Source: Candidatus Kaiserbacteria bacterium
GTDB lineage: Bacteria; Patescibacteriota; Minisyncoccia; Phycocordibacterales; Phycocordibacteraceae
Length of the DNA stretch: 64,000 nt
Reading direction: 5' to 3'
Assembly (NCBI GenBank): GCA_016217905.1
Contig: JACRFL010000013.1
Coordinates: 3,184 to 67,183, forward strand
In this document: piece by piece, positions 1,792-52,998 of the stretch
Position numbering within the stretch: the stretch's first letter is position 1
How the letters are laid out: every line of letters starts with the position of its first letter
Program-made: the position numbers and the translations under genes
Notes under the pieces: generated by a model
What the model was told of the DNA's origin: nothing
Seen by the model: the letters and a program-made list of their open reading frames with translations, nothing else
Databases searched by the model: none

Positions 1792-1793
1792 CC

Positions 1794-3146: not shown

Positions 3147-3152
3147 ATAAGC

Positions 3153-4453: not shown

Positions 4454-4484
4454 TAAATCGATTCGCTTCGCCGCGCGCCGGACA

Positions 4485-6152: not shown

Positions 6153-6181
6153 CCGAATACTCTACCAGATGCGCGCGGATT

Positions 6182-6721: not shown

Positions 6722-6873
6722 ACCCTAAGCATAGCAGGTTATTTCTGTACCTGGTGTTCAGAACAAAATACATTGACATTGATAGCTCGACGTGTTTGAA
6801 TGTGCCTAACGTCGTTTGTTCATTTTCATTTTGCAGCAGGTTACGACGTTTCCTGCGGGCAAAGGAGAAAGCC

Positions 6874-6972
6874 ATGGAATCAAGCACACATGCAAGACTC
6901 ATCGTACCGCAGGTATACCGACCACGTGCGGGTGAGCGAGATCTTCACCTGACGACCGTTGCAGTTACATAG
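6874..6972 (+). CDS. Candidate 32-aa small protein (MESSTHARLIVPQVYRPRAGERDLHLTTVAVT)
   Basis: AAAGGAG 6 nt upstream of ATG 6874. The TAG stop lies inside a 21-nt perfect palindrome followed by a T-rich tract. Sits in an AT-rich intergenic island. No homology recognised. Confidence 0.25.
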   Translation: MESSTHARLIVPQVYRPRAGERDLHLTTVAVT

Positions 6973-6995
6973 GGCTGCCCTATGTATTTTCTATG
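6966..6995 (+). terminator. Hairpin TACATAGGGC-T-GCCCTATGTA plus T-rich tail
   Basis: Perfect 10-bp arms (6966-6986) followed by TTTTCTATGTATTT. Confidence 0.4.
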
Positions 6996-7045
6996 TATTT
7001 CAAATTGTGCATGCTCTCATTTCCCGATTTTTGATGTCCTAGTTT

Positions 7046-7477
7046 CTACCAAGTTTCTTTTGTCCTAAGATACGTCCGCACGATTTTGACTAGAGAAACG
7101 ATGACGAGAATGATGTAGAGGATGCCGATGACAAGAGCATCGAACGCGCCCGATACTGCGCCGCTGATGCCTATGCCCCCGCCGCCGCCCGCGTTTTGTA
7201 AAAAGAGCGTCACCGCGATAATCACCGGCACCCACCACCGTGCGAATCTCCACCACGCCTGGAAGACTTCGTCTTTCAGGCGATACGTGATGAGGGAGAA
7301 AATGAGAATTGGCACTAAAGGGAACACCGAGACAGCAACAATTTCGTAAGAATCATTGCAAAAAAACCAATTTTTCTGATAACAAGACAGGATTTGGTTC
7401 AAGATAGCCGGAAGAAATAACAAAATGCTTCCAACTATTCCCAGAAACAATACATTCTTTTTTGTATTCATAATCAA
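7046..7477 (-). CDS. Multi-pass membrane protein, hypothetical
   Basis: 143-aa ORF with about four hydrophobic helices. AT-rich codon usage unlike the flanking core genes. Confidence 0.55.
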   Translation of the reverse strand: MIMNTKKNVLFLGIVGSILLFLPAILNQILSCYQKNWFFCNDSYEIVAVSVFPLVPILIFSLITYRLKDEVFQAWWRFARWWVPVIIAVTLFLQNAGGGGGIGISGAVSGAFDALVIGILYIILVIVSLVKIVRTYLRTKETW

Positions 7478-7482
7478 AAAAA

Positions 7483-8886
7483 TTAATAATTCACCTCGAT
7501 CTTCCCCTTATTAGTCGTAAGATCGATGACAGCTAATCCCGGTAAGATTTTCTTGATCTCTCTTTCACTCTTATCTTCTTCGCTCTTTACCTCTTCCTCA
7601 ATCCTTGTCACGTTCTTCTTCGCATCGTAATGACCCTCGATCTTCAGAGTGCCCACTGTTGTTTTTTCTTCAAGCTCTTTAATGGCTTCGGTTTTGTCTG
7701 TGGACCACTCATATTTTAACATCGTCTTAGGGAGCAGTTCCGCAGATATGCCGCTGTATCGGAGCTCTTGGATTTCCAATTTGAGTTCGTGTTTTCCTTG
7801 ATTGAGTTTCTTGAAGACGATCTGCAGTGTGTTGCCGGCTTCGTCGGCAATGGTGGTGCTCGTGGCTGTTGTTAGGACAGTGGTACTGGAGAGATTATCA
7901 GTCCCGATAATCTTAAATTTTTGCGATGCCGGATCGAAAGTCAGGACTGCTTCCGGCGGTGTGATGTCGAACACAATCGTCTTTCCGATTTCCGACTTGA
8001 ACGAGAAGTCGGTCGTGCCATTCCCATCATAGTCGAGAAGAAGAGGTGAGGCGTTTTGGAGGGTGCCGTCGATAAATGTCATAGTCGCTTTGGTGCTTGT
8101 TGCAGACGGGATGGCGGAGAGGGTGCTTGAGGCGATAATGGTATTGCTCCCGTCTATTTCTTGCATATCAAGCGTGAATGAGCCTGTGGCGTAGCCGTCA
8201 AGGTTGAGGGTGAGAGGAGTGTTCTTGGGAACGGTGATCACTTGAACTTCGCCGTAGCGCTTAAAGCGGCCGCCGGGGATGGTGGAAGTGGCAGCATTAA
8301 CGACGTTGCCGAGGTTATCGGTGGCAGAGAGATTGAGAGGCGAGTGGAGAAGGAAGCGGAGACGTTTGTCGGCAACTGCGTCGGTGGCAGGTTGGGTGGT
8401 GAAAATAAATGCCAGTGGTGTTGTTGAGGTGGAATTGGTGAGAATGTTTTGAACCAGCGTGCGGAGTTCGGGGATTTCGAGGATGTCGGCGTGCTTGCGC
8501 GGGACATTTCCATTAAGCCACCATTTATTATAATCCTCCAAATTCACCCAGTACTTCCCCGCTGTCGAAGCAGTCGTTGTCCACAGTGCGCTCGGAACGA
8601 GTACCGTGCCATCTCCTTCCACAACCTCTTTGGGGCTGTAGGTGATTGCCGGAGAGACGGTGCAGGTGCGCACATCTGACATATCACTGCAATACGTTTT
8701 CCTCCCTTCCTGGTATTCAATCGTCGCAAGGGTATCCTCTCCCCACCCGGCGATTTCGTAGAGCTGCACTCCCTGCGGAGGCGCCCACGTATCAAGAGCA
8801 TTATGAACCGCTTCCGCTTTGGAAAGAAGTACCGCATTCCCTACACTCGGGTAGATGAGGTCGCTTGGTGATGATGAAGCGAGACG
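7483..8886 (-). CDS. C-terminal portion of an LCAT/PGAP1-like lipase-type surface protein (track ORF 7483..8769; frame open up to the TGA at 8887)
   Basis: The frame stays open for 39 start-less codons upstream of GTG 8769 and is in phase with ORF 8887..10224. Contains the EGDGTVLVPS Asp-type motif and Thr/Ser-rich beta-domains. Confidence 0.55.
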   Translation of the reverse strand, partial: RLASSSPSDLIYPSVGNAVLLSKAEAVHNALDTWAPPQGVQLYEIAGWGEDTLATIEYQEGRKTYCSDMSDVRTCTVSPAITYSPKEVVEGDGTVLVPSALWTTTASTAGKYWVNLEDYNKWWLNGNVPRKHADILEIPELRTLVQNILTNSTSTTPLAFIFTTQPATDAVADKRLRFLLHSPLNLSATDNLGNVVNAATSTIPGGRFKRYGEVQVITVPKNTPLTLNLDGYATGSFTLDMQEIDGSNTIIASSTLSAIPSATSTKATMTFIDGTLQNASPLLLDYDGNGTTDFSFKSEIGKTIVFDITPPEAVLTFDPASQKFKIIGTDNLSSTTVLTTATSTTIADEAGNTLQIVFKKLNQGKHELKLEIQELRYSGISAELLPKTMLKYEWSTDKTEAIKELEEKTTVGTLKIEGHYDAKKNVTRIEEEVKSEEDKSEREIKKILPGLAVIDLTTNKGKIEVNY

Positions 8887-13146: not shown

Positions 13147-14133
13147 CTATCGTTTTGCCGCCTCCGGAGGAAGACCCGGGAGCGGGCGTCGAACCGCCCC
13201 CACTGGACTGTTCGTCGAACCGCCTGCTTGCGCCAACAAGGGCACCGTGAACCGGCGCTCAACGCTTATCGTCGGCGGCGAGGCCCGAGAGATGACGCGG
13301 TATACGTACGTCTCTCCCGGCGTCAGACCGGTGAGTAAGAAAGAATGATTCGTTACTTTCGTCGTGTCTTCGGGAGTGGCGAACGGGTAGCCAAAATTCG
13401 GAGGTATCAGGACCAGAGCGTAGGGGCCGCCGGAGACCGGGCCATAGACGACCTGGCTGGTCGAGAGAAGATTTGTTTCCCACGTTATCGTGGCTAGTCC
13501 GGACTGGCCCACGTTCGATATGTCGAGGGCTTTTTCGTTGAATATGAAGAGACTGTTCCCAATCGATCCCCCGCCTCCTCCTCCGCCAGAACCAAGAATA
13601 GTCCCACCGCCCGGCGGCGTTCCACCTCCTCCGCCGCCTTCGCCTCCTACGACCGTGTTGCCGCAGCGGGTGGTACCCCCGTTGAACCCGACGCATACGT
13701 CGAAGCCGAGCGTCTTTCCTTGATACGAATTATCGCTTGAATCGATGAAGGAAACGTTGTACGTGAACGTCTTTGATTCTCCGTTTCCAATCGCACCGAG
13801 AGGGACTTCACCGGCGGTCGAGAGGAAATTCGCAAGAGAGTCGTCGAAGAGTGTTCCGCTGTTCCCGGTTATAGAGAGATGCAGAAGGGCGCTGAAGTTG
13901 CCGGCATCAAAAACATTAATGGCTTCGGTCAAGACGTTTTGTGTCGCGCCGGAATTATTGGTGACCGTAACGGTGCCGGCCGTCGAGTCGAGCGGAAGAA
14001 AATTCGATTTGTTGAACAGCGGATCCGGGACGAACTGGACGCCAAGCGGCGCCTGTGCCAAGGCAACGCCGGCGAAGCCCGTCAGAGAGAGGGCGACGAC
14101 CGGCAGTATCGAGATTTTAAGAAAGTTCTTCAT
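13147..14133 (-). CDS. Secreted protein with FN3-like domain and poly-Gly tracts
   Basis: ATG 14133, 5 nt after the upstream stop. Signal peptide MKNFLKISILPVVALSLTGFAGVALA. ATITWETN...LTGLTPGETYVYRV FN3-like signature. Confidence 0.65.
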   Translation of the reverse strand: MKNFLKISILPVVALSLTGFAGVALAQAPLGVQFVPDPLFNKSNFLPLDSTAGTVTVTNNSGATQNVLTEAINVFDAGNFSALLHLSITGNSGTLFDDSLANFLSTAGEVPLGAIGNGESKTFTYNVSFIDSSDNSYQGKTLGFDVCVGFNGGTTRCGNTVVGGEGGGGGGTPPGGGTILGSGGGGGGGSIGNSLFIFNEKALDISNVGQSGLATITWETNLLSTSQVVYGPVSGGPYALVLIPPNFGYPFATPEDTTKVTNHSFLLTGLTPGETYVYRVISRASPPTISVERRFTVPLLAQAGGSTNSPVGAVRRPLPGLPPEAAKR

Positions 14134-14137
14134 ACGT

Positions 14138-16135
14138 TTATTCGGCCGGGGTCGCCTCCGTCGGAGCGCTCTCGACAACTGCCGGAGCGCTCTCCGCCAC
14201 CACTGCCGCCGGCTCCGCTGGAGCGACTGCGGGCTCGGGGATGGCTGGCTCGACCGGCGTTTCCACGGCCGCTTCCGGCTCCGGAGAGAGAATGTCCTCT
14301 TCACGTGTGACGGCCGGCTCGACCGCCGCCGGCTGATCGGGAGCGGCCGTCTCCGCGGGAGCGGTCTCTTGAGACGTTCCCTCTGTCGAGATAGTCGTTT
14401 CAGACGCCACGATCTCGGTCTCCTCGGACGCACCTTCCTCGACCGGCAGCGGCGCCACGACGTTCTCCGGCCCGATGAAGAGGGGGAACGGATCATAGAT
14501 TCGGCCGCTCACGCTGCCAGAATTGAGCATCGGATTTTCCGGACCGATGGCGACGAGATGGATCCAGATGTAGCCGAGGAATCCGGACGGCACCGTCCAG
14601 GTAAACGCGCCGTCGTTTCCAGTAGTTTCGACTATCGTGTGCGTCGTGTCACCCAGACTTATTTTTCCGTCGTGGTTTACGTCCTTCACGTAGTAGATGC
14701 CGATGTCGAGGTCGCCGTCGGGGCCGTTGTTATTCGTCGCCGTCCACTTGATCTCGTAACTGTGCGTCCAGTACCACGTGTACGAGCCTCCCTCGTCCGG
14801 GTAGACGAGATCGATCGAAGGCGGCACGAGTTCTTTCCAATCGGAGGGCGCGTCGGTGTCGTAACCGGAAGGTACTCGAGCAAGGACGTTGCCCTCGGCG
14901 ACATTTGCCGCCCCGGGATCCCAGACGTTCGGATTGTAATTCGTCCATCCGGTGTCGGGGGTGCCCCAGTTCATCTGGTCGACGATAATCCTGTCGGGAC
15001 GTTTGAGGACAAGCATGTCGGCGTCGTTATCCAAACCGCCCCCGATTTTCGAATGTATGTTGATTTCGGTCACCTCGCTCGGCAGATACCAGTACGCGGG
15101 CAGGCCGCTCGAAACGGTCGTTGAGGTGGCGGTGGTTGACGTGGCAACGATGACCGCATATTTCTGCGCGGGAATGAGGAGTGTCGTCGGCAGGGTGTCA
15201 CACGAGGTGTTGTCGCAAATCTGCCATCCGGAAATATCCAAAGGCACGTTTGTCTGATTGTAGATCTCCACCCATTCGTTCGTACCCTCCGCACCGCGCT
15301 CCGGCGTTTTCACGTTGTAGTAGATCTTGTTGATCCGGAATCCCCACGAAGCGAGATGGTTTTTTACTTTTTCCGTATCGTTAAATCCGCCACCCTCGTA
15401 GCTCGGGTAGTCGTGCCGCGTTTGCCAGCCGTTGTAATCGATGTCGAAGTCGCAGGTGCGGTTTTGGAGATTGCTGGTCCCCGCCGTGTAGGCGAATTCC
15501 CACGGGTCGAGCGCGGTTGTCGTGGCGGTGAGGAGCCCCGTAAGAGGACCGTGATACATCTGGGTGCCCCCGCGCGTCGCGGTAACGTCAAGCCCCGAGC
15601 AGAAATCGGCATCGCCGGTAAAGTTGGTCGAGGTGGCGAAGTATTGAAACGGATTGCTCGCTTGCGGGTCGATCGCAACCGTCTTTTTCGTAACATCTCC
15701 GGGCGGCATCGACACGGCCGTACTCGTCGCCTGCCAGCCGGAAGTTGTCAGCGAGAAATCGACCGAACCCGCCCGGAAGGCATTCTCGGTCGAGCTCTCG
15801 ATATCGTTGTAGTATCCCCTTGTACTGCCGAGGCCGGTGATGCCGACGCTGTTAAGGCCGATCATGAGCGTGACGGCGAGCGCTTTAAGCGACAGCCGCG
15901 GCGTCGCCCTTATAAAAAACGGAGAGAGGACGCTCTTGCGCCTGTTCGCCCGCGCCGCGCGCGGCGCGCACGCGGCGCGCGGGCGCAGATCGAGCACATG
16001 CGCAGACGACGCGACGCGACGCGCCTTCCTCCTGGCGACCCTTCTCACCGGCACGGAAACACGCGCAGCGACAGTCGCTTTTTCTTTTTTCCGGGGAGTC
16101 TTCTTTATCGCTCCCGTTTTAATATGTACCGCCAT
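14138..16135 (-). CDS. TasA/CalY-like N-terminal module fused to a lamin-tail domain (LTD) and a Pro/Glu/Ala-rich tail
   Basis: GSTRGYYNDIESSTENAFRAGSVDFSL resembles the SipW-cognate TasA N-terminus. NEWVEIYNQTNVPLDISGWQICD is an LTD signature. Arg/Lys-rich extension of about 80 aa before the hydrophobic segment. Confidence 0.7.
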   Translation of the reverse strand: MAVHIKTGAIKKTPRKKEKATVAARVSVPVRRVARRKARRVASSAHVLDLRPRAACAPRAARANRRKSVLSPFFIRATPRLSLKALAVTLMIGLNSVGITGLGSTRGYYNDIESSTENAFRAGSVDFSLTTSGWQATSTAVSMPPGDVTKKTVAIDPQASNPFQYFATSTNFTGDADFCSGLDVTATRGGTQMYHGPLTGLLTATTTALDPWEFAYTAGTSNLQNRTCDFDIDYNGWQTRHDYPSYEGGGFNDTEKVKNHLASWGFRINKIYYNVKTPERGAEGTNEWVEIYNQTNVPLDISGWQICDNTSCDTLPTTLLIPAQKYAVIVATSTTATSTTVSSGLPAYWYLPSEVTEINIHSKIGGGLDNDADMLVLKRPDRIIVDQMNWGTPDTGWTNYNPNVWDPGAANVAEGNVLARVPSGYDTDAPSDWKELVPPSIDLVYPDEGGSYTWYWTHSYEIKWTATNNNGPDGDLDIGIYYVKDVNHDGKISLGDTTHTIVETTGNDGAFTWTVPSGFLGYIWIHLVAIGPENPMLNSGSVSGRIYDPFPLFIGPENVVAPLPVEEGASEETEIVASETTISTEGTSQETAPAETAAPDQPAAVEPAVTREEDILSPEPEAAVETPVEPAIPEPAVAPAEPAAVVAESAPAVVESAPTEATPAE

Positions 16136-16142
16136 ATATCGG

Positions 16143-16163
16143 TGTGGAGGTCAGACCTTCATA
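16143..16163. repeat. Palindromic element family B-like copy overlapping the sipW stop codon
   Basis: TGTGGAGGTCAGACCTTCATA. Arms pair with two G-T positions. Confidence 0.5.
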
Positions 16164-16704
16164 GCGCGGCAGAATCACCGAGAGGATCTTCTCCTTTCGG
16201 CCGCTTCATCTTCCGCACCTCCCTCCGGATATTCTGCGCTTCGTCGAAGACGACGATGACAGCCGGCACGCCGATGAGAAGAACGAATCCGAACGGCTTT
16301 TTCGCGAAGTCGAGCAGGTAGCCGAGATACGGGACCGAGAAGAGCACCTTCCCGATTACCTCGCTTTGCCGCACCAGCTGCGGATCGGAATCTTCGTTCG
16401 CGTCTCCCTTCGTCGTGTAGTAGAAGACGCCGCCCCTCACCTCGTCAGAGACGATGCGATGGGTCGTCGGGACTTGCGTCTTCGTGTCCGGCCCGAACAT
16501 GATGACGTCTCCCACCGCGTACTTCCCGAGAGGCTTGACCACCGTGAGCGCGCCCGTCTTGATGGTCGGCTCCATTGAGCCCGACTGAACTATTTTCACC
16601 TCGATATTCCCCGGTATCGGCACCAGGCTCACCACGAGGAGCGCGCCAAGCGCAAGGACGGCGCCGACGAGGACGTAATATGCGGTTTTGAAGAGTGTGT
16701 GCAT
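16159..16704 (-). CDS. sipW: Signal peptidase I, SipW/archaeal-eukaryotic (S26B) type
   Basis: SGSMEPT (Ser), THRIV (His), TKGDAN box, plus a C-terminal membrane helix. Confidence 0.85.
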   Translation of the reverse strand: MHTLFKTAYYVLVGAVLALGALLVVSLVPIPGNIEVKIVQSGSMEPTIKTGALTVVKPLGKYAVGDVIMFGPDTKTQVPTTHRIVSDEVRGGVFYYTTKGDANEDSDPQLVRQSEVIGKVLFSVPYLGYLLDFAKKPFGFVLLIGVPAVIVVFDEAQNIRREVRKMKRPKGEDPLGDSAAL

Positions 16705-16730
16705 GCGTGGCTCCGCTCGAGCCCCGGCTC

Positions 16731-16758
16731 TTCCGCGCCGCGAACATGCGGCGCGGAA
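16731..16758 (-). promoter_or_regulatory. Intra-operon hairpin TTCCGCGCCGC-GAACAT-GCGGCGCGGAA between the TasA-like gene and sipW
   Basis: 11-bp perfect GC-rich arms in the 94-nt gap. Possible attenuator or processing site. Confidence 0.35.
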
Positions 16759-16798
16759 CCTGCCGATACTCGAGCGCTACTCGGTCAAGAGAGATCTC

Positions 16799-43785: not shown

Positions 43786-46700
43786 ATGGCCTCGCGCTTC
43801 ATCCACCTGCATACGCACAGCCACTACAGCTTTCTCCAGGCGTTACCGAAAGTTGACGAGCTGGTGGAGAAAGCGAAAAAGGAGGGCATGGATGCGCTCG
43901 CGCTCACCGACGCGGGTAACATGCACGGCGCGATAGAGTTCTACAAAGCGGCGAAAGCGGCCGGCGTAAAGCCCATTCTCGGAGTCGACGCGTATCTCGC
44001 TCCGCGCTCGCGGCACGACCGAGACCACGCCCTCGACGCGAAGCGCTCACGCCTCGTCCTTCTCGCAGAAAACAACGAAGGTTACGCGAACCTCCTCGCG
44101 CTTGTGACGAAGTCGTGGACGGAGGGGTTCTTCGAGCGTCCGCGCCTCGACAAGGAGCTTCTGCGCGAATATTCGCGCGGCATCATCGCGCTTCTGCCCT
44201 CGTTCGCGGGCGACATCGCGCAGTGTTTGCGCGCCGGAGACGCTGACGGCGCCGCAGCCGCGCTCGCCGAATTCAAAAATATCTTCGGCGCCGGGAACGT
44301 CTTTTTGGAAATTACGCACCATCCGAAAGTCGAGGGACATGAAGCGCTCATGCAAAAAATCGTTGCGCTCGGGCAGACGAGCGGTACGCCGCTCGTCGCC
44401 CAGCACGACGTGTACTATCTGGAGACCTCCGACCGCGAAGCGACCGAGATTATGCGCCGCATCCAGCACGGCGCACACGGCAGGAATGAGGACGAGGATT
44501 TCTCCTTTATTGGCGAAAAAGCCGCGGAGAAAATTTTTAAGGATACTCCCGACGCGATCGACAATTCGCGGAAGATCGCAGACCGCTGTTCCGTCTCTTT
44601 TGACCTCGGGAAATGGACCTTCCCCGCCGTGCCGGTGTCGCCCGGTTTTAAAAACCACGACGAAGAGCTCCGAGCGAAGGCGTACGCCGGCATCGCGACA
44701 CGGAAACTCGAAGAAACAAAAGAGGTTACCGACCGCATCGAATACGAATTGAATATCATTATCGGCAAAGATTTTGCGGTGTATTACCTCATCGTCGCGG
44801 ACCTGCTCGCGTTCGCGCGGCGCGAAGGCATCCTCACCACCACACGCGGGAGCGCTGCCGGAAGCCTCGTCGCGTATCTCATCGGCATCACGAACGTGAA
44901 TCCGCTTTTCTACAAGCTCCCCTTCGAACGGTTCCTCAATCCGGAGCGCCCGAAAGCGCCGGACATCGACATGGACATGGCCGACAACCGCCGCGACGAG
45001 ATGGTCGCGTACACGAAGCGGAAATACGGCGAAGACCACGTCGCACAGATAGGAACCTTCGGCACGATGATGGCGAGGGCGGCGGTGCGCGATGTCGCGC
45101 GCGCTCTCGGCCACGCCTATAGCGCCGGCGACCGCATCGCAAAGCTCATTCCGATGGGTTCTCAGGGTTTCCCGATGACCATCGACCGCGCGCTCGAGCT
45201 CGAGTCGGATCTGAAAGCGCTCTACGATGAGGACGACGAGTCGCGGGAAATACTCGACCTCGCAAAGCGCATTGAGGGCTGCGTGCGGCACGTGGGAGTG
45301 CATGCGGCGGGCGTCGTGGTCGCGCCGACCCCGCTTATCGAGTGGACGCCTATCCAGCCCGACCCGAAGGGTACCGGCAAGCTCATTACGCAATACGACA
45401 TGTACTCCATTACTGACGAGTACGGCGGTGTCGGGCTCCTGAAATTCGATTTCCTCGGCATCAAGAACCTTGCCATCCTCGCCGACGCGGTTGCACGCGT
45501 GAAAGAGACGCGCGGTATTGAGATCGATATCGAAAATGTTCCTATCGACGATGGTAAAACGTATCAGATGCTCGCTCGCGGTGAGACGGAGGGGACCTTC
45601 CAGCTAAACGGCTCCGGCATGACCCGCTGGCTGAAGGAGCTGTGCCCCACGACCATCCACGACATCAACGCGATGGTCGCGCTCTATCGCCCGGGGCCGA
45701 TGGAGACGATTCCGCAATACATTGAACGAAAGCACAATCCCAAGCTCGTCCGCTACGCGGACGAGCGCATGAAGGAGTATCTTGACTTCTCCTACGGCCT
45801 CCTCGTCTACCAAGATGACGTGCTCCTTACCGCCATCAAGCTCGCCGGCTATTCCTGGCTCGAGGCGGACCAGCTTCGCAAAGCGATGGGGAAAAAAATC
45901 CCGAAAGTCATGCAGGCGGAAAAACAGAAACTGACCCGGGGGTTCATCGGATACGGAAAACTTTCGGAGAGCATGGCGGAAAAACTCTGGAAGCTCATTG
46001 AGCCGTTCGCCGCGTACGGCTTCAACAAGGCACACGCAGCTTCATACGGCAAGGTCGCCTATCAAACGGCGTATATGAAAGCGAATTATCCGGTGGAGTA
46101 TCTCGCCGCACTCCTGACCGCCGACTCGGGCGACACCGACTCCATCGCCATTTTCGTCGCTGAAGCCAAGCGCATGGGTATCCCCGTATTTCCCCCGGAC
46201 GTGAACGAAAGCGGAACGGCATTTACCGTTGTCGGCGCGGATAGAGACGCGATCCGCTTCGGTTTGTCGTCCATTAAGAACTTCGGTGACGGCATCTCGG
46301 AGGCGATCATCGCCGAACGGAAGAAGCGCGGCCCTTTTGCTTCCCTCTCCGATTTCCTCTCTAGCGTCGGCTCGAGAAACCTGAACCGAAAATCGCTTGA
46401 GTCCTTGATCAAATGCGGAGCGCTTGACTCTCTAAACTCCTCACGCGACGGACGCGGCACCTTGCTCGACGGCATCGAAACCCTTCTCGCCTTTCATAAA
46501 GAGGCGACCGTGGTGGCGCCGCAAGATTCCCTTTTCGGCTCGCTCAACTTGGCGCCTTCGCTTACGCTTCCGGAAGGCAAGCCGACCTCGCTCTTTGACA
46601 AGCTCGCCTGGGAAAAGGAATTGCTCGGTATTTACGTAAGCGGCCACCCGCTTGATGCGCATGAAGCCATCGTCAAAAAATCTGCCTTTTCCGTTAAAAA

Positions 46701-46968
46701 AATAAAAGAAGAACCGCAGCCAGGAATGCTTCTCATCCTGCCCGTGCTCGTCTCAATCGTGCGCGCTCTTCTTACTAAGAGCGGCGAAAAGATGGCGTTC
46801 GTCACGATGGAAGACACCACAGACTCCATTGAAGCGGTCGTCTTCCCGAAACTTTTTAAAGAACATGCGGGCGTCATCGTGCCCGGAACATGTCTCCTTG
46901 TGAAAGGGAAAGTTTCGGTCCGAAACGGCGAACCCTCGCTCGCGATAGAAGAGCTCAAGCCGCTGTGA
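43786..46968 (+). CDS. dnaE: DNA polymerase III alpha subunit
   Basis: N-terminal PHP FIHLHTHSHYS, palm/fingers region, C-terminal OB fold. 1060 aa. Confidence 0.95.
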   Translation: MASRFIHLHTHSHYSFLQALPKVDELVEKAKKEGMDALALTDAGNMHGAIEFYKAAKAAGVKPILGVDAYLAPRSRHDRDHALDAKRSRLVLLAENNEGYANLLALVTKSWTEGFFERPRLDKELLREYSRGIIALLPSFAGDIAQCLRAGDADGAAAALAEFKNIFGAGNVFLEITHHPKVEGHEALMQKIVALGQTSGTPLVAQHDVYYLETSDREATEIMRRIQHGAHGRNEDEDFSFIGEKAAEKIFKDTPDAIDNSRKIADRCSVSFDLGKWTFPAVPVSPGFKNHDEELRAKAYAGIATRKLEETKEVTDRIEYELNIIIGKDFAVYYLIVADLLAFARREGILTTTRGSAAGSLVAYLIGITNVNPLFYKLPFERFLNPERPKAPDIDMDMADNRRDEMVAYTKRKYGEDHVAQIGTFGTMMARAAVRDVARALGHAYSAGDRIAKLIPMGSQGFPMTIDRALELESDLKALYDEDDESREILDLAKRIEGCVRHVGVHAAGVVVAPTPLIEWTPIQPDPKGTGKLITQYDMYSITDEYGGVGLLKFDFLGIKNLAILADAVARVKETRGIEIDIENVPIDDGKTYQMLARGETEGTFQLNGSGMTRWLKELCPTTIHDINAMVALYRPGPMETIPQYIERKHNPKLVRYADERMKEYLDFSYGLLVYQDDVLLTAIKLAGYSWLEADQLRKAMGKKIPKVMQAEKQKLTRGFIGYGKLSESMAEKLWKLIEPFAAYGFNKAHAASYGKVAYQTAYMKANYPVEYLAALLTADSGDTDSIAIFVAEAKRMGIPVFPPDVNESGTAFTVVGADRDAIRFGLSSIKNFGDGISEAIIAERKKRGPFASLSDFLSSVGSRNLNRKSLESLIKCGALDSLNSSRDGRGTLLDGIETLLAFHKEATVVAPQDSLFGSLNLAPSLTLPEGKPTSLFDKLAWEKELLGIYVSGHPLDAHEAIVKKSAFSVKKIKEEPQPGMLLILPVLVSIVRALLTKSGEKMAFVTMEDTTDSIEAVVFPKLFKEHAGVIVPGTCLLVKGKVSVRNGEPSLAIEELKPL

Positions 46969-46982
46969 TATATTCCACAGAT

Positions 46983-48224
46983 ATGGATATGCCTGCGGAG
47001 AAAGAACGCGATCATAAGAAGCTCGGCAAAGAGCTTGACCTCTTCACCTTCTCGGACTCGGTCGGCAAAGGACTTCCTCTTTTCACCCCCAAGGGCTCGG
47101 TTGTTCGCCGCGAACTTGAACGTTTTATTGTTGACGAAGAGATTCGACGCGGCTACCTCCACGTGTACACGCCCGATATCGCGAAAATTGATTTGTATAA
47201 AAAAAGTGGTCACTATCCGCACTACAAGGATTCTATGTACGCGCCTATTGAAATAGACAAGGAACAATTTATGCTCCGTCCGATGACTTGTCCGCATCAC
47301 TTTGAACTCTACCTGCGCAAGCCGGTGAGCTATCGTGAGTTGCCGATGCGCATTGCCGAGCTCGCGAAACTGTATCGTTACGAACAGTCCGGCGAAATTA
47401 TGGGGCTGCAACGAGTTCGCACTTTCTGTCTGGCCGATGCACATATTATTTGCGCAAACGAAGAACAGGCCGTGGATGAAATCAGCGGGGCGCTTGACCT
47501 CATTGAATACGTCACTTCCGTATTCGATCTCGCGCTTGACGTGGATTACCGTTATCGCCTTTCGCTCGGCGATCGCGCGAACACAGAAAAATATTATGCA
47601 AATGACGACGGCTGGGAGAAAGCGGAGGACCTTCTGCGAAAGCTGATGCAAAAGCGCGGTTCAAAATTTGAAGAAGCGAAGGATGAGGCCGCCTTCTATG
47701 GACCGAAAATTGATATTCAAATGAAAAATGTGAACGGAAAAGAAGATACTGCCTTTACCGTGCAGTACGACTTTTGCATGCCGGAGCGATTTGACCTTTC
47801 ATACATCGGCGAGGATGGTGAAAAGCATCGTGCGTTTGTTGTGCATCGCTCCTCTATCGGTGCCATTGAACGTATTATGGCGTTCCTCATAGAGAAATAT
47901 GCGGGTGCCTTCCCGCTCTGGCTTGCGCCCGTGCAGGCCACAGTGTTGAGCGTGTCGGAGAAACATGCGGCGTATGCGCGGGAAGTCGCCAATGCGCTTA
48001 GGGCAGAGAACATCCGTGCGAACGTAGACGACACGAACGAATCGCTTGGGAAAAAGATACGCAACGCGAAGACGGAAAAAATTCCCTACTCGCTTGTCGT
48101 CGGCGATGCCGAAGTCGCCGCAAAGACAGTTTCGGTCGACAGCCGCGACCACGGAAAGCTCGGCGCGACTTCCCTGTCTGATTTCATTGCAAAAGCGGTT
48201 GAAGAAATAAGAGATCGAAAATAA
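46983..48224 (+). CDS. thrS: Threonyl-tRNA synthetase, catalytic core plus anticodon-binding domain only
   Basis: Starts at ERDHKKLGKELDLF, which corresponds to the start of the class II core in E. coli ThrRS as recalled. ATG 46983. Confidence 0.9.
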   Translation: MDMPAEKERDHKKLGKELDLFTFSDSVGKGLPLFTPKGSVVRRELERFIVDEEIRRGYLHVYTPDIAKIDLYKKSGHYPHYKDSMYAPIEIDKEQFMLRPMTCPHHFELYLRKPVSYRELPMRIAELAKLYRYEQSGEIMGLQRVRTFCLADAHIICANEEQAVDEISGALDLIEYVTSVFDLALDVDYRYRLSLGDRANTEKYYANDDGWEKAEDLLRKLMQKRGSKFEEAKDEAAFYGPKIDIQMKNVNGKEDTAFTVQYDFCMPERFDLSYIGEDGEKHRAFVVHRSSIGAIERIMAFLIEKYAGAFPLWLAPVQATVLSVSEKHAAYAREVANALRAENIRANVDDTNESLGKKIRNAKTEKIPYSLVVGDAEVAAKTVSVDSRDHGKLGATSLSDFIAKAVEEIRDRK

Positions 48225-48243: not shown

Positions 48244-51063
48244 TTAGGCGCCGAGGATCGCGAGCGCACGAGTAAGCGCGAGCTTCGCGCCCGTCACGCC
48301 CGTCGAGTAGCTGGAGTCGATAGCGGTTGTGAGGGAGGCAACGAGCTTCTCCAGAACCGGCGTCGAAAATCGGGCGGTCAAGCGTACGATTCCGGCATCG
48401 CAGGTAGTGCCGTCAATACGCGCGCGATACGCGTCGTCGATGAGGCAGACGATGCTTGAGAGAAGCTGCTCCGGCGCACCGGCACCCTGCACATGCCCCC
48501 GCAACCCAGCGAAGACCGCGGCACGGTCGCCCTCAAGCAGCGCGGCGGCAAAATCGCGAACGGATGCGGGTGCTGCAACTGCCGTCGCCGCCTCGCCGGT
48601 ATCGGCGGCAATCGGTTCGACGTTTTCATACACCGGCTCAACCCTTTCATATATCGGCTCTACTCGCGGCGCCGGTTCCCCTTTTTCTTCGACAGTTCGC
48701 GGAAGATGGTGCCGCGAAAGGCTCTTCACGATGTCATCAATCGAGAGCGCGCCGTCGTGCGCAAAAGACTTGAATCCGTGGTACGGCGAATACCCGCGCG
48801 GCGTCGCGGGCTCTGGCACAGGGAGAAGAGATTCGTTTTTCTCCGGAGGTTTCGGGTGCGGCGGAGCTACGGAAACGGCCCGCGTGGAAAGCGCAGTCGA
48901 AACGCGGGAAACGAAGCTGCGAATCGAGCGGTTCGCGAACGGCACCGCGCCGAAGAGCACGAGATACGCAAGCGCGAGCGCCCATCCGACAAGGGCGATC
49001 CAATACAGTACCGTGCCGACGGGTCCGAGCTCAAGGCCGGTGTACGGAATTTGAGAAAGATAGAGATACGCGAGCGGTTGCGCGTTCACGTGCGGAAGCG
49101 CCGCAAGCGTGATGGTCGGCGGAGGCGGGCCTCCTCCGCCACCACCGCCACCACCGCAGTTGCTGGTGCATCCGCCTCCGCCTCCGCCAGTCACAGAGAG
49201 CGCCGCGGTACAGGTGAGCGTCTGGCCGGTATTCGCCGTGAATACACCGGTGTACGTGTAGCTGCCTACGGCCGTCGGCGACACACTTGTCGAACTCGGT
49301 ATCGTCGTCGTCGCGCCGACACCGTTGTCTATAGACACGCTTTGTATTCCCGAGCCGCCCCACGAGAGCGTCGCCGAACTGCCAGAAACAATGCTGGTCG
49401 GACTGACGGCGAGAACGCACGACGGACCTCCGCCGCCGCCTCCGCCTGTGTTAACCGAGACCGTCGCGGTACAAGTCGCGGTTCCACCCGTCGGACTCAC
49501 CACTGTGCCGGTAAAGATAGTGTCCGCATTGATCGCGAGAGACATTATCGAACCGCCCACTGCGGGACTCACCGAGCCGATGCCCTGATTAATACTGAAA
49601 GTGTCGGCATTTGTGGCCGTCCACGTAAGCGATGCGCGATCGCCTCTATTCACTTTCACCGGAGAGGCGAGAAGCGTGCAGGTGGGTGCGGACGGAGGGG
49701 GTGGGGGTGGGGGTTTCGTCGTGACCGTCACCGTCGCCGCGCAAGTTGCCGAGCCGCCCGCGCCGGTGGCGGTGCCGGTGTACGTGGTGGTAAGGGTCGG
49801 CGAGACCGACTTCGAGCCGGACGCGACCGGCGCCACGGAGCCGATAGTGTGATTAATCGAGAACGATGCCGCATTCGCGGTCGTCCAAGAAAGTGTCGAA
49901 GGCGAGCCGGTCTGAATAGTCGTCGGCGATGCGACAAGGGTGCAGGTGGGAGCGGGAGGTGGGGGTGGGAGATGCGGGTATGTGCAGGTGATACCGGCCT
50001 GGCTCGTCGCAGCCGGGTTGTAGTTGGTGGCGGAGGGGTCCATACAGCCGTAAACGGGAGGGGGCGGGGGCGGTGTTGGGGTGACCGTAACGGTTGTCGA
50101 GCACGTTACAGAACCGCCCGCGCCGGTGGCGGTGCCGGTGTACGTGGTGGTAAGGGTCGGCGAGACCGACTTCGAGCCGGACGCGACCGGCGCCACGGAG
50201 CCGATAGTGTGGTCGATGGAAAATGCCGCAGCACTCGTCGTCGTCCATGAAAGCGTTAAAGAGGAGCCGACTTGGACGGTCGAAGGCGACGCCGAGAGTG
50301 CACAGGCAGGAGTGACAAGGGGCGGAGGAGCGCAACCCGGATCAGTCCCTATGTATTTATAGTTTCGCGGAGTCGAATCATCGTAGGCCCAGATCTGCCA
50401 GTTATTCCCGTTTAGATCATTACCGCCAGTACAGTAATTGGTCCAGATGGGCTCGACGACAACGGGAGCGACACATCCGTTCGCAATCGTTCCGTTTTCT
50501 ACAAACAGGTAGTTCGTCGGGGTGGAATTATCGTATGCCCATATTTGCCATGGGTGCAAAACGTCATTCGCTCCCGTACAGTAATTAGTCCACACGGGGG
50601 GCGGGGACGAGACTGCGATCTCAGCCGTACAGGTACCCTCCCCGCCCGGGCCCGAGACAGTCATCGTGTAGTTCGTCGTCGCTGTGACGGAGATTGTTCG
50701 AGAGCCGGAGTCAGCGGGCGAAACCGCTCCTACACCGTTGTCGATAGCTGCGCCCGTGGCCGTAGTCGTTGTCCACGAGAGCGTCGAGGAGCCGCCGCCG
50801 AAGGCGAGCGAAGCCGGGTTCGCGGAGAGCGCGCAGGTGGGTGCGGGCGGCCCGTCTAGACCGCCGCCGCCGCCGTCACCAGCGCCGCCTCCTCCCCCGC
50901 CCCCATCTCCGCCGCCACCTCCTCCACCGCCCCCATCTCCCTCGGCAAGCGCATGGAGAACGCCGAACGGAGACAACTCACCGTAGTGCTGCAGCACAAA
51001 GCCGCGCGAGAGCGCGAGTAGCATAAAAAGCAGTATCAGGGTGATCGAATATCGGAAAGGCAT
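48244..51063 (-). CDS. Large repeat-containing surface protein with IPYTG motif, membrane helix and about 230-aa C-terminal domain
   Basis: Signal-like N-terminus, poly-Gly tract, five Cys-bracketed Ig-like repeats (C.L.ASP...LSWTT...TC...V.V) joined by poly-Pro/Gly linkers, then SQIPYTG plus a hydrophobic helix. Confidence 0.75.
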   Translation of the reverse strand: MPFRYSITLILLFMLLALSRGFVLQHYGELSPFGVLHALAEGDGGGGGGGGGDGGGGGGGAGDGGGGGLDGPPAPTCALSANPASLAFGGGSSTLSWTTTTATGAAIDNGVGAVSPADSGSRTISVTATTNYTMTVSGPGGEGTCTAEIAVSSPPPVWTNYCTGANDVLHPWQIWAYDNSTPTNYLFVENGTIANGCVAPVVVEPIWTNYCTGGNDLNGNNWQIWAYDDSTPRNYKYIGTDPGCAPPPLVTPACALSASPSTVQVGSSLTLSWTTTSAAAFSIDHTIGSVAPVASGSKSVSPTLTTTYTGTATGAGGSVTCSTTVTVTPTPPPPPPVYGCMDPSATNYNPAATSQAGITCTYPHLPPPPPAPTCTLVASPTTIQTGSPSTLSWTTANAASFSINHTIGSVAPVASGSKSVSPTLTTTYTGTATGAGGSATCAATVTVTTKPPPPPPPSAPTCTLLASPVKVNRGDRASLTWTATNADTFSINQGIGSVSPAVGGSIMSLAINADTIFTGTVVSPTGGTATCTATVSVNTGGGGGGGPSCVLAVSPTSIVSGSSATLSWGGSGIQSVSIDNGVGATTTIPSSTSVSPTAVGSYTYTGVFTANTGQTLTCTAALSVTGGGGGGCTSNCGGGGGGGGGPPPPTITLAALPHVNAQPLAYLYLSQIPYTGLELGPVGTVLYWIALVGWALALAYLVLFGAVPFANRSIRSFVSRVSTALSTRAVSVAPPHPKPPEKNESLLPVPEPATPRGYSPYHGFKSFAHDGALSIDDIVKSLSRHHLPRTVEEKGEPAPRVEPIYERVEPVYENVEPIAADTGEAATAVAAPASVRDFAAALLEGDRAAVFAGLRGHVQGAGAPEQLLSSIVCLIDDAYRARIDGTTCDAGIVRLTARFSTPVLEKLVASLTTAIDSSYSTGVTGAKLALTRALAILGA
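49754..49851. repeat. 98-nt perfect direct repeat, copy 1 (within the surface-protein gene)
   Basis: Identical to 50114..50211. The 360-nt offset equals one 120-codon protein repeat. Confidence 0.9.
50114..50211. repeat. 98-nt perfect direct repeat, copy 2
   Basis: Identical to 49754..49851. Confidence 0.9.
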
Positions 51064-51115
51064 GCGTTAATTCCTATTTCCGAGACGCCTCATCGAGACG
51101 TGCCGGAAAAGGGAT

Positions 51116-51148
51116 CCATCGGGAGATGCGCGAACGCACCTCCGATGG
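51116..51148 (-). terminator. Imperfect hairpin plus T-tract after gene 51164..52234
   Basis: CCATCGG...CCGATGG arms. The minus strand continues ATCCCTTTTCC. Confidence 0.3.
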
Positions 51149-51163
51149 ACACGAGCGCAGAGA

Positions 51164-52234
51164 TTATTCGATCCAGTGCTCGTTCATGATGCAATCCGGG
51201 ACCGGATTGCTGTCCCACTCGCCGAGCGTAGTGCCCGGCAAACGGTTGAAGAACCGGAGCTCGTGGAGCCCCGTTTGGTGATATCGAGGCGGCGATACGA
51301 CATCATCGTTTATCGATACAACCCGGATTGCATCCCAAGTCTCGAGCTGAGCTCGTGAAAACTGAAGCTCGTGGAGCCCCGTTATCGGGACATCGCCAAG
51401 GACGTGCTCCTCGGTTACCGCAGGCGCTTCGCCGCGAACCTCCGGTGTCATGATGAACGACACACGGAAGACCCTGGTGGTCGCACTGCGCGCGATTTCT
51501 CCGGCAGCGTAGGCCTTGCGGAACTGCCCGCCGTGCATCCGCGAGACATGCGATGCTCCGACGAATTTTTCTTCGAGCTCTTCTTTTGCCGCCGTGCGCT
51601 CGACCCCAGGAAGGTTGAATGCTTTGCGTTCCCAAACGTTCACCTTCAGGGTGTACACGTCCGGGCACGCCCCGAGTGGCTTGAGAACGGCAGGCACTAC
51701 CGGTTGTTCCGGAGAAGCCGTTGCCACCCAGCTGACGTTGAAGCACACGAATGGGAGGTACAGAACGTAAACCTTCCCTTCGTGCGCAAACGTCCACGAG
51801 AACGCCTTCGCCGCTTCGGCGACCGCGCCCTTGCGGTACGACCGGCCGTCGGGCGATTTGAGAACCGGCAATTCCCCCACCGTGACGTTGTTCATCACGT
51901 GCGGTTTGGGGCCGCCGCTCCACATCTGCTCGAGCCGCTGGTGCGGCGTAAGCCACACCTCGGTGCCGCCTTTGCAGGTGGCGCCGAGAGCGGCCTTGAA
52001 ATGCTCCTTGACCGGCGGCGGCATGTTAAAGCCGTCGATGGACTCAATAAGCACTTTCGCGCATGCTTCCTCTTTCGAAGAAGCAAACGGTGCGATGTTC
52101 CACCTGTCCCATTTCACTCCGGCCTCGGCTGCTCGCACCTCCGGGATGACCATTGTCGGAATGAATATGAGCAGCAAAAACGCTGCGAACAGGAGAAGCA
52201 CCTTGAAGGCGATTTCCCGCACTTTGATTTTCAT
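51164..52234 (-). CDS. Secreted/membrane-anchored hypothetical protein (356 aa)
   Basis: ATG 52234. N-terminal helix VLLLFAAFLLLIFIPTMVI. No family recognised. Confidence 0.55.
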   Translation of the reverse strand: MKIKVREIAFKVLLLFAAFLLLIFIPTMVIPEVRAAEAGVKWDRWNIAPFASSKEEACAKVLIESIDGFNMPPPVKEHFKAALGATCKGGTEVWLTPHQRLEQMWSGGPKPHVMNNVTVGELPVLKSPDGRSYRKGAVAEAAKAFSWTFAHEGKVYVLYLPFVCFNVSWVATASPEQPVVPAVLKPLGACPDVYTLKVNVWERKAFNLPGVERTAAKEELEEKFVGASHVSRMHGGQFRKAYAAGEIARSATTRVFRVSFIMTPEVRGEAPAVTEEHVLGDVPITGLHELQFSRAQLETWDAIRVVSINDDVVSPPRYHQTGLHELRFFNRLPGTTLGEWDSNPVPDCIMNEHWIE

Positions 52235-52298
52235 AGCACTTCTCCTGCCTGTGCCGCGCAAGCGGCGATTGGTTGAAAGAACTTTTCTCTCCCTTACG

Positions 52299-52344
52299 GA
52301 GAGCCACGCGATTTCCGGCGTTAGCCGGAAATCGCGTGGCTCTC
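52299..52344. repeat. 46-nt hairpin with 21-bp perfect arms; the sortase stop codon sits in the GTTA loop
   Basis: GAGAGCCACGCGATTTCCGGC-GTTA-GCCGGAAATCGCGTGGCTCTC. Confidence 0.85.
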
Positions 52345-52998
52345 AACAAAGTCTGCGGTGACAACGAACCGGTCCGTTTTCTTCCCGAAGGAGTCGCAGG
52401 TCACAAGCGTAAGCACCTTCCCCCCTGTAGAAAGCGGAATGGCCGTGTTATCGTTCGCGCTTTCTTTCGCGACGCTTTGCACCCGGTACGTATACGCCGC
52501 GCCCGAAGCGTACACGATAATCGCGTCTCCGGCAACGAGCTTCTGGATGCCGTTGAAGGTCTTGTACGCTTGATTCTTGACGACCGGCAGGTAGCTCGAG
52601 TGCCCGAAGAGAACGACATTGCCCGTCTCTCCGAGCAGGGCCGATGTCGGGTAGCGCACCGCTCCCGACAGGAGCTCTCGGTCAAGCGCATCGATTGCGG
52701 TCGTTGTCGGGTTCACGACTGCCGCCGAAAGGCCGATGGCGGAAATTTCTATCTTCGTCGGCAATTCAGAAACGACCGGTGACGCCTGCGTTCTCCGCTC
52801 CGATGTCGCGCGCGAGACGGCCGGAGACGCGGAAACGGCACCGGTCGCACGCGCTTCCGGCAAAAGATCGAGCCTGCCGAGCACGGCGATGCTTCCGAGA
52901 AACAGTGCGGCGAAAAAACAAAGAAAGCTCCACTTCCGCGCGTACGCGCGCTCCGCGGCTTCGACAAGCCCCACGATAAAATCAATAAACTTCTGCAT
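52321..52998 (-). CDS. Sortase-family transpeptidase
   Basis: N-terminal anchor helix, VVLFGHSSY (His), LTLVTCD (TLxTC Cys), RFVV (Arg). Confidence 0.8.
   Translation of the reverse strand: MQKFIDFIVGLVEAAERAYARKWSFLCFFAALFLGSIAVLGRLDLLPEARATGAVSASPAVSRATSERRTQASPVVSELPTKIEISAIGLSAAVVNPTTTAIDALDRELLSGAVRYPTSALLGETGNVVLFGHSSYLPVVKNQAYKTFNGIQKLVAGDAIIVYASGAAYTYRVQSVAKESANDNTAIPLSTGGKVLTLVTCDSFGKKTDRFVVTADFVESHAISG

Follow-up and report, generated by a model that had tools for sequence, protein, structure and literature searches.

The window, the whole 64,000-nt stretch of DNA analyzed here, comes from a Kaiserbacteria genome of the candidate phyla radiation (CPR) and contains a four-gene cassette. 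A gene for a CARDB-like membrane protein lies on the plus strand. Divergent from it, on the minus strand, are the genes for a sortase, a mosaic secreted protein, and a predicted sortase substrate. A preliminary description had named the three minus-strand genes and the divergent CARDB-like gene upstream, and all of these elements are in place. The cassette is probably co-transcribed.

The sortase gene (52321..52998, minus strand; 225 aa; NCBI MBI5405936.1) matches Pfam PF04203 with an E-value of 5.5e-23 and 81.5 bits against a threshold of 26.6. In NCBIfam, TIGR01076 scores it 40.3 against a cutoff of 39.35. The protein has an N-terminal membrane anchor at aa ~23-41. The catalytic codons, which were checked on the minus strand, are those of His133 (52600-52602), Cys201 (52396-52398), and Arg210 (52369-52371). 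In the alignment, FGH133SS, LTLVTC201, and DR210FVV are in register with the solved sortases 8t28, 2kw8, and 4d70, and the His/Cys/Arg triad is invariant among 50 orthologues. The earlier sortase call withstood this triad alignment and, judged from its sequence, the protein is a real and catalytically competent sortase. No class-specific NCBIfam model of the established classes (A-F, GN) reaches its cutoff. The scores are all far below, with class E the best (51 against 160), followed by SrtD (42 against 140), D (39 against 165), C (38 against 160), F (27 against 166), and GN (19 against 158). On these sequence comparisons, the sortase is placed in an unclassified CPR-specific clade. An enrichment of sortases in CPR bacteria had been reported before (PMC6744442).

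The predicted substrate (48244..51063, 939 aa; NCBI MBI5405934.1, 'hypothetical protein') has the layout of a type-I membrane protein: the ectodomain is variable, a sorting signal and a single TM helix come next, and the cytoplasmic region is conserved. All of its features are on the minus strand. The N-terminal signal or anchor MPFRYSITLILLFMLLALSRGFVLQ (aa 1-25, 50989..51063), conserved in L001 and P0052, includes a hydrophobic 15-mer (aa 9-23, mean Kyte-Doolittle 2.3) and is a putative signal peptide. A poly-Gly/Asp tract follows (aa 41-68, 50860..50943). Both the signal-like N-terminus and the poly-Gly tract agree with what had been described for this protein.

The ectodomain carries five Cys-bracketed Ig-like repeats, defined by alignment (A3 for R1): R1 (aa 74-152, C77-C145; 50608..50844), R2 (aa 251-328, C254-C321; 50080..50313), R3 (aa 371-448, C374-C441; 49720..49953), R4 (aa 459-538, C462-C531; 49450..49689), and R5 (aa 546-625, C549-C618; 49189..49428). 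The count of five is as first reported, but the unit is ~80 aa (68-70 aa from Cys to Cys) and not 90-120 aa. Besides the linkers reported earlier, Cys-containing modules are also located between the repeats. They are two WTNYCTG...WQIWAYD...GC units (aa 157-197 and 206-244, 50332..50595; DNA repeat family D5) and one GCMDPSATNYN...C unit (aa 338-362, 49978..50052), a short module that is multiplied in many homologues. Identity to the first unit is 39-48%, 16 columns are invariant over all five repeats, and R2 and R3 show a 272-nt DNA duplication of 78% identity. The repeat profile gave a weak Ig-like match in PDB (9ncf_S, E 0.0012), together with telokin and titin. R5 is followed by a conserved stalk element, GGGGCTSNCGGGG (aa 626-646, 49126..49188), which is present in homologues. 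Ectodomains are freely exchanged across the family, in contrast to the conserved cytoplasmic module. Gene callers often cut family members short at the repeats, and public annotations therefore under-represent the family.

The juxtamembrane stalk PPPTITLAALPHVNAQPLAYLYLSQIPYTG (aa 647-676, 49036..49125), conserved in alignment A1, ends in the sorting motif SQIPYTG (aa 670-676, 49036-49056; IPYTG at aa 672-676). In A1, conservation is 90% or more at stalk positions Y22, S24, I26, P27, Y28, T29, and G30. The motif census gave 63 QIPYTG and 7 QIPQTG, and the remaining variants differ at X only. Across the family, P, T, and G are conserved and X is Y, Q, R, H, F, or K. When the conservation of IPYTG was tested, (I/V/L)PxTG was kept in essentially every homologue covering the region. 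In all six frames of the window, SQIPYTG is the only match to xPxT[GAS] plus a hydrophobic segment. The TM helix (aa 683-709, 48937..49017; best 21-mer mean Kyte-Doolittle 2.2) is covered by an AF2 helix at fragment residues 35-81 with pLDDT above 90. It leads into the basic ANRSIRSFVSR and the Arg-rich stop-transfer segment ANRSIRSFVSRVSTALSTR (aa 710-728, 48880..48936), which is positive-inside like that of classical sorting signals. The layout is tripartite as in the classical ones: pentapeptide, hydrophobic helix, and Arg-rich segment.

The earlier proposal of an LPXTG-like substrate stands as to the motif but not as to the canonical wall-anchored type, because the signal is internal and a conserved cytoplasmic region of ~230 aa follows. 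There are 263 residues after the motif Gly (family median 277, range 97-420). The substrate is unusual because its LPXTG-type signal is this far from the C-terminus, with a conserved cytoplasmic domain behind it. The short charged tail at the extreme C-terminus, the defining trait of sorting signals, is absent. The internal position of the motif went unremarked in the preliminary description and is counted here as the most important point.

The conserved stretch around the motif comprises ~30 residues. Sortases usually need fewer conserved residues, and a structural role of the segment is therefore possible. A stretch so much longer than the pentapeptide would suit a protein that is never cut. 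Such a full-length protein would be a TM tether linking the surface domain to a cytoplasmic oligomerizing domain, with YLSQIPYTGLDLGP as a structural or partner-binding element, and the sortase would serve other substrates elsewhere in the genome or bind without turnover. When the whole 939-aa protein was scanned against NCBIfam (E up to 0.1), no family came up, therefore no curated sorting-signal model matches, which is also in line with an uncleaved tether. Against it, the motif variation is exactly LPXTG-like, with X alone varying, and there is no other candidate substrate in the cassette or the window. An uncleaved tether is considered unlikely.

The secreted two-domain protein 'mid' (51164..52234, minus strand) has 356 aa from the ATG and is 100% identical to NCBI HY972_02770. 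The longest ORF (51164-52261) has a TTG start and 365 aa; the ATG at 52234 is the NCBI-annotated start. Its signal peptide is followed by a pair of beta-rich domains, at aa 40-173 and 193-356. It matched no family in Pfam or NCBIfam, and its size matches the NCBI entry, in agreement with the first account of a 356-aa secreted protein of unknown family. If it has a pilin-like CnaB-type fold, the sortase could join Thr675 to one of its lysines, and the result would be a pilus-like or heterodimeric covalent surface complex and not peptidoglycan anchoring. Sortase-assembled pilins (SpaA, SpaD, EbpC, and BcpA) differ from mid, in which neither a conserved pilin-motif Lys nor an LPXTG signal of its own was found; the protein ends in ...NEHWIE, with neither a motif nor a TM segment there. 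Its shuffled domains are another difference from these pilins. Assembly of this kind seems quite unlikely.

The cytoplasmic region of the substrate begins with a linker (aa 729-832, 48568..48879) that is mostly disordered, its AF2 pLDDT being low save for one short helix. It includes the conserved motifs PRGYSPYHGFKSF, ALSIDDIVKSL, and tandem VEP(I/V)YE (A1 consensus, invariant columns), with EP[IV]Y at aa 802 and 809. The C-terminal six-helix domain (aa 833-939, 48247..48567) is confidently predicted and matches the clamp-loader domain III (collar) fold by two methods. The helical bundle is superposable on domain III of DnaX, delta, and RFC. There was no Pfam match at E up to 10 and no PDB sequence match at E up to 1 for this domain. 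The likeness of the predicted model to the collar is at the fold level only, without a sequence-level relationship. Clamp-loader domain III (DnaX tau/gamma, delta, delta', and RFC) and the C-terminal domain of MgsA/RarA differ also in context. Here, AAA+ domains I-II are absent ahead of the collar-like domain, their place being taken by the TM helix and the disordered linker, and the domain is membrane-tethered, forming the end of a surface protein. What is conserved in the substrate is the cytoplasmic module (50-68% identity). By these alignments, it is the cytoplasmic region, not the Cys repeats, that defines the family. A large conserved cytoplasmic domain would make little sense on a discarded peptide, a further point for the uncleaved tether.

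In Paceibacteria, the C-terminal module family has 1048 representatives (sequence clusters) and is found in at least 150 species genomes. In the substrate-centered survey of species genomes, a sortase is located upstream on the same strand, at a distance of 1.4-4.7 kb, in 43 of the 44 loci with at least 5.5 kb upstream. In the sortase-centered survey of metagenomes, the module with SQIP[YQ]TG is located downstream in 16 of the 17 loci with at least 6 kb downstream. The core idea of the preliminary description, a sortase beside its own substrate, is strongly supported by the conserved motif and by this linkage in both directions. One dedicated sortase is likely to be paired with a single likely substrate per cassette. 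Linkage so near to perfect speaks against an uncleaved tether. One locus is more favorable to it: L088 retains an intact sortase, but the adjacent signal is a degenerate IPYIG, the ectodomain is nearly gone, and the secreted-protein gene is missing. At L151, a sortase locus has no module downstream; it represents a copper-ATPase island or a chimeric contig.

The cassette is conserved across the Kaiserbacteria/Paceibacteria lineage, and it is still present in a distant lineage (L091). Its usual site is between gyrB and thrS-dnaE-rnhB. In L004, the whole cassette has been relocated as a unit to a different genomic context.

The CARDB-like protein (53062..53844, plus strand; 260 aa) matches Pfam CARDB PF07705 at aa 138-252 (E 9e-07, 29.5 bits against a cutoff of 22.7). 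It is composed of an N-terminal TM anchor, a linker, and a C-terminal CARDB Ig-like domain, and its gene starts 63 nt from the sortase start. In essentially every locus that extends far enough, the gene adjoins the cassette in one of two places: directly downstream of the substrate, or next to the sortase in divergent orientation. It was described earlier as a divergent gene, and it is; but it is more than that, being a constant member of the cassette whose N-terminus is fused to the substrate module in some variants. In P0055, P0115, and P0119, ~70 N-terminal aa of the CARDB-like protein are fused to the substrate TM and cytoplasmic domain, which are kept without the motif and the ectodomain. 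No sortase, secreted-protein, or CARDB gene was found at these loci. The sortase-less L087 and L089 retain the same GyrB...ThrRS-DnaE context. Motif, ectodomain, and sortase were thus lost together in three independent natural variants. Such co-loss of motif and sortase, with the rest kept, argues against the uncleaved tether. The proteins of P0055, P0115, and P0119 resemble the predicted post-cleavage stub.

It is fairly probable that the dedicated sortase cuts off the variable surface domain, with a functional stub remaining in the membrane; cleavage, acceptor, oligomerization, and stub function are what we infer here. The substrate would be exported via its N-terminal signal and held by the single TM helix, with the variable disulfide-bracketed Ig-like ectodomain outside and the conserved ~230 aa inside. 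The signal recognized by the membrane-anchored sortase would be the extended juxtamembrane stretch ...LAYLYLSQIPYT/GLELGP..., which lies six residues out from the TM helix. The enzyme would process the predicted cleavage segment LYLSQIPYTGLELGP at T675-G676, cutting between Thr675 and Gly676. The ectodomain would then be transferred to an amine acceptor, most likely a peptidoglycan precursor and possibly the co-encoded secreted protein. The remnant would be a conserved membrane-anchored protein with a collar-like cytoplasmic tail, not a throw-away peptide as for classical LPXTG proteins. The collar-like domain probably oligomerizes, because of the analogy with the clamp-loader fold, and the stub apparently works in concert with the CARDB-like membrane protein.

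The cut might instead serve signaling. The sortase would perform a 'site-1' shedding at a rate set by wall assembly or host contact, and the stub would then act in the cytoplasm, once activated or freed by an intramembrane protease. The stub would keep ~7 extracellular residues, which is typical of site-2 protease substrates; conserved linear motifs and a folded domain are present in the cytoplasmic region; and the chimeric variants have the appearance of constitutive stubs. The C-peptide of S. gordonii, which stays in the membrane after SrtA processing and is sensed by the SGO_1180 two-component system, sets a precedent for such a remnant, outlined in PMC11326707; it is equally a precedent for the functional stub of the reading favored above. 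The part shared with the present system, here as a prediction, is a membrane remnant of sortase cleavage with a later role. As outlined there (PMC11326707), what a separate kinase senses in S. gordonii is a short generic peptide, whereas here the remnant would be a conserved protein of ~260 aa with a folded domain. On the other side, no protease, kinase, or DNA-binding domain was found in the cassette genes, the collar fold is an oligomerization module and is not known as an effector, and this signaling role is inferred throughout. We regard it as very unlikely.

A more distant conjecture, for which we see only a slim chance, is that cleavage serves as a processing step for making a membrane-anchored DnaX-domain-III-like protein, and anchoring of a surface protein would not be its main purpose. 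Its collar would assemble into or mimic the clamp-loader collar, and the replication machinery would in this way be coupled to surface or wall events such as host attachment or envelope growth. In the sortase-less chimeras, the 'processed' form would be constitutive. The usual position of the cassette between gyrB and thrS-dnaE-rnhB in these minimal genomes fits such coupling.

Returning to the detached ectodomain and retained stub, the cassette shares several characters with the Gram-positive LPXTG (sortase A) systems: an export signal, (L/I)PXTG just outside a hydrophobic helix followed by basic residues, a membrane-anchored Cys transpeptidase with the His/Cys/Arg triad, and a repetitive Ig-like ectodomain on Pro/Gly-rich linkers. 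In those systems, the tail has 5-10 residues, whereas here ~230 conserved cytoplasmic residues follow the helix (up to ~400 in relatives). One housekeeping sortase A serves many substrates there, in contrast to one sortase and one substrate per cassette here. The conserved motif flanks, the internal signal, and a sortase outside the NCBIfam classes are also distinct. Specialized sortases beside a single cognate substrate are known in dedicated pairs such as SrtB-IsdC (NPQTN) and the 'marine sortase' TIGR03784 with its adjacent target. Like this cassette, these pairs have a family-specific extended recognition motif. Their targets end shortly after the hydrophobic segment, and none of these targets is known to carry a folded cytoplasmic domain. 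TIGR03784 scores 19 bits on the present sortase against a cutoff of 158.

The cassette provides a concrete lineage-wide sortase-substrate pair for CPR, and it bears on the targets of CPR sortases and on the building of envelope and host-contact structures. Textbooks treat sorting signals as C-terminal tags to be disposed of. The cassette breaks this rule, as no part of the protein is more conserved than the one predicted to stay behind in the membrane, which also has a confidently predicted fold and survives in sortase-less genomes. If the cleavage is confirmed, the scope of sortase biology would widen beyond anchoring to a single cut with two functional products, and the cassette would offer a handle on surface display in uncultivated episymbionts.

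The interval between the ThrRS and GyrB genes in the window holds three minus-strand genes and one divergent plus-strand gene, which together constitute the cassette. The minus-strand genes encode a sortase (225 aa, 52321-52998), a 356-aa secreted protein (51164-52234) and a 939-aa protein, the predicted sortase substrate (48244-51063), and are separated by gaps of 59-86 and 100 nt. The plus-strand gene (53062-53844) matches the CARDB domain, as the preliminary description had proposed. Exact protein matches assign the window to a Candidatus Kaiserbacteria MAG whose locus tags begin with HY972_. The window is gene-dense, has a GC content of roughly 59% and is made of core genes, which are DnaE (43786-46968), ThrRS, GyrB (53841-55931), PheT, RpoB/C, DnaG, sigma-70, SMC and RNase R. 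A mobile-element origin of the cassette is unlikely, because its flanks are core housekeeping genes (DnaE, ThrRS, GyrB, PheST, RpoBC and DnaG) and its GC content is typical of the window. No tRNA genes were found near the cassette. The promoter and terminator scan was uninformative: no promoter was detected, and the number of terminator-like sites was below that in shuffled sequences.

Several other features were observed in the window. ThrRS (46890-48224, plus strand) is short, about 410 aa from its likely start, and its longest ORF shares 79 nt with the end of dnaE. The tRNA_SAD editing domain, which is present in the 576-581-aa ThrRS of more distant Paceibacteria (loci L090 and L091), is absent from it; the orthologue in locus L001 has only the tRNA-synt_2b and HGTP_anticodon domains. 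A second cluster of probable surface proteins (13147-19060, minus strand) encodes a purple-acid-phosphatase-N/FN3-like domain protein (13147-14496), a lamin-tail-domain protein (14138-16135), an unknown 442-aa ORF (16799-18127) and a camelysin/TasA-like Peptidase_M73 protein (18149-19060). The gene at 60612-62324 (minus strand) codes for a 570-aa protein that contains Cohesin and Big_13 domains, and two GH130 (mannooligosaccharide phosphorylase-like) paralogues lie side by side at 616-3146 (plus strand). The GC content falls to 0.47 at 62001-64000.

The sortase matches the Pfam Sortase family with 81.5 bits. Its FGH133, TLVTC201 and DR210 are aligned in register with the catalytic residues of solved sortases, and His133, Cys201 and Arg210 are invariant across 50 orthologues; the catalytic triad noticed earlier is thus present. 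The protein passes the generic sortase model of NCBIfam, while it stays below the cutoff of every class A-F and GN model, the best being class E with 51 bits against a cutoff of 160. By these models, it lies outside all established classes.

The SQIPYTG motif of the 939-aa protein is at residues 670-676. It is followed by six residues, a TM helix (residues 683-709), an Arg-rich segment, a linker of ~100 aa and a 107-aa C-terminal domain. The predicted position of the motif relative to the membrane is that expected of a sorting signal, but the "tail" beyond it is 230 residues, not a handful. The motif is conserved as [QE][ILV]P[YQRHFK]TG across the genome loci, with P, T and G fixed and X free, and as [QED][IVLM]PYTG in the wider family. 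Many homologues seem to start right before LSQIPYTG, which would argue against a sorting signal. This was rejected by reading the DNA: the reading frames extend further upstream to cover signal peptides and repeats, and these short entries are therefore truncated gene calls or scaffold-gap artefacts. Public gene calls often cut the family to the last 270-400 aa (L001, L003, L004 and many protein entries), and the repeats of family members are overlain by spurious ORF calls on the minus strand. Many metagenome contigs end 1-2.5 kb downstream of the sortase, within the repeat region.

A search with residues 647-939 returned 193 clusters with 50-68% identity, all from Kaiserbacteria or Paceibacterota and none with a name. 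The exhaustive profile search for the module, which comprises the juxtamembrane motif, the TM helix, the linker and the C-terminal domain, yielded 1048 representatives with E of 1e-3 or less and 164 with E of 1e-30 or less. This module always occupies the C-terminus, in proteins up to 1378 aa, and was found in 150 genomes in a scan of one genome per species. N-terminal to it, homologues differ completely: among their ectodomains are Cys-bracketed Ig-like repeats, GC(M/T)DxxAxNYN units, CPNxxGxQ units, SpaA-like prealbumin domains or only a Pro-rich linker. It is the C-terminal module that defines the family.

The five Cys-bracketed repeats of the 939-aa protein are real (39-48% identity; 16 columns are invariant, as are the Cys at the two ends), but their unit is about 80 aa rather than the 90-120 aa first estimated. 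Small Cys modules of other kinds sit between them. The second and third repeats represent a 272-nt DNA duplication with 78% identity. Pfam and NCBIfam searches returned no family for the 939-aa protein, the isolated repeats, the linker, the C-terminal domain or the 356-aa protein, for which an unknown family had been noted before. The sole match on these queries, SPDY with 17 bits, was dismissed as meaningless. PDB sequence searches with the module and secreted-protein profiles gave nothing useful.

The sortase gene and the motif are tightly coupled. A same-strand sortase lies 1.4-4.7 kb upstream in 43 of the 44 substrate loci whose upstream sequence extends for 5.5 kb or more. An independent scan of metagenomes, with the sortase as its starting point, gave 17 loci with 6 kb or more of downstream sequence, and 16 of them carry the module with SQIP[YQ]TG there. 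The exception, L151, has the sortase followed by a copper-ATPase island, explained either by an insertion or by a chimeric contig. Its positions 1-8713 contain the orthologous sortase and then a heavy-metal island (a P-type ATPase and small membrane proteins), with no substrate there. The only substrate-side exception, L005, encodes the motif-less variant P0115. Two more motif-less variants, P0119 and P0055, are in the GyrB...ThrRS-DnaE context of the window. The loci of all three lack the sortase, secreted-protein and CARDB genes. The cassette has moved as a unit into a different neighbourhood in L004, and is also present in a distant lineage, L091.

Four lines of evidence, namely the conservation pattern, the linkage from the substrate side, the linkage from the sortase side and the natural knock-outs, indicate that the motif is a sortase signal. 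On the other side are the long tail, the conservation of ~30 residues around the motif, the lack of a match to any curated sorting-signal model in NCBIfam, and L088, where the signal is IPYIG beside an intact sortase. The minimal cassette of L088 (9254-11035) lacks the gene for the secreted protein, and its substrate homologue has 344 aa and hardly any ectodomain; this cassette may be in decay or have been repurposed. We consider it quite probable that the sortase and the 939-aa protein are a true sortase-substrate pair.

The secreted protein could be the acceptor of the cleaved ectodomain, which is a minority hypothesis. Three findings count against it. A candidate acceptor lysine was looked for and no conserved lysine was found in the family of the secreted protein. 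The family is built as a mosaic, in which three or more N-domain types and four or more C-domain types occur in most combinations. A few cassettes that are otherwise intact lack the gene.

In the chimeric proteins P0055, P0115 and P0119, the first 60-77 residues share homology with the N-terminal TM region of the CARDB-like neighbour (47-53% identity, E 1e-15 to 1e-20), and the rest is homologous to residues ~681-939 of the 939-aa protein, beginning directly after the motif. These chimeras look like the stub that is predicted to remain after cleavage, and their topology puts the C-terminal domain on the cytoplasmic side. The N-terminal ~70 aa of the CARDB-like protein (53062-53270; ...LAVVGFIAIIGASLWLAAYSTRFVPSVAGRIGSAAVYLGSIF...) form the N-terminus of these three proteins in three different genomic contexts. 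This Rosetta-stone-type fusion is a hint that the two membrane proteins, the CARDB-like protein and the substrate, work together.

In the AF2 model (59-sequence alignment), the TM helix is confident, the linker is largely disordered and the C-terminal six-helix domain is very confident, with pLDDT mostly above 95. The conserved linker motifs are PRGYSxYxGFKSF, ALSI(D/E)DIVKxL and tandem VEP(I/V)YE repeats. The latter (48640-48665, residues 800-813; family consensus VEPxYExVEPIYExVEPI) show strong conservation in spite of the predicted disorder of the region, and are similar to the EPIYA tyrosine-phosphorylation motifs of CagA-type effectors. The six-helix domain matched DnaX tau (14.6 and 14.2), B. 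subtilis delta (12.7), RFC subunits (10.8 to 9.7), delta and delta' (10.2) and the MgsA/RarA C-terminal domain (8.6 to 7.6); Pfam and PDB searches found no sequence-level relationship to these proteins. The matched domain is the oligomerisation ("collar") element in all of them, and oligomerisation would thus be the most economical inference for the six-helix domain.

Mechanistically, the cassette resembles classical sortase A sorting and dedicated sortase-target pairs. Unlike sorting-signal proteins, the 939-aa protein lacks their defining "C-terminal short tail". The S. gordonii C-peptide, left in the membrane after SrtA processing, is a precedent for a sortase remnant with a function, as summarised in PMC11326707; no precedent for a folded domain on such a remnant was found in the literature. 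Méheust et al. noted that sortases are enriched in CPR bacteria and did not name substrates (PMC6744442). No account of the architecture was found in literature searches on sortases in Parcubacteria/Patescibacteria, on IPYTG/LPYTG/VPYTG motifs or on sortases with cytoplasmic domains.

Based on the gene, domain and repeat findings, the preliminary description is accurate. Its interpretation as a sortase-substrate module is partly supported: the pairing is strongly supported by linkage, motif conservation and co-loss, but the internal position of the signal and the long cytoplasmic tail after it were missed. In the model with the best support, a dedicated sortase would cleave an internal LPXTG-type signal, cutting after the Thr of the peptide LYLSQIPYTGLELGP. 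The complete model, in which the stub is functional, is favoured with more reserve. The rapidly diversifying ectodomain would be released for covalent attachment, and the conserved membrane stub would remain with a function of its own, working with the CARDB-like membrane protein.
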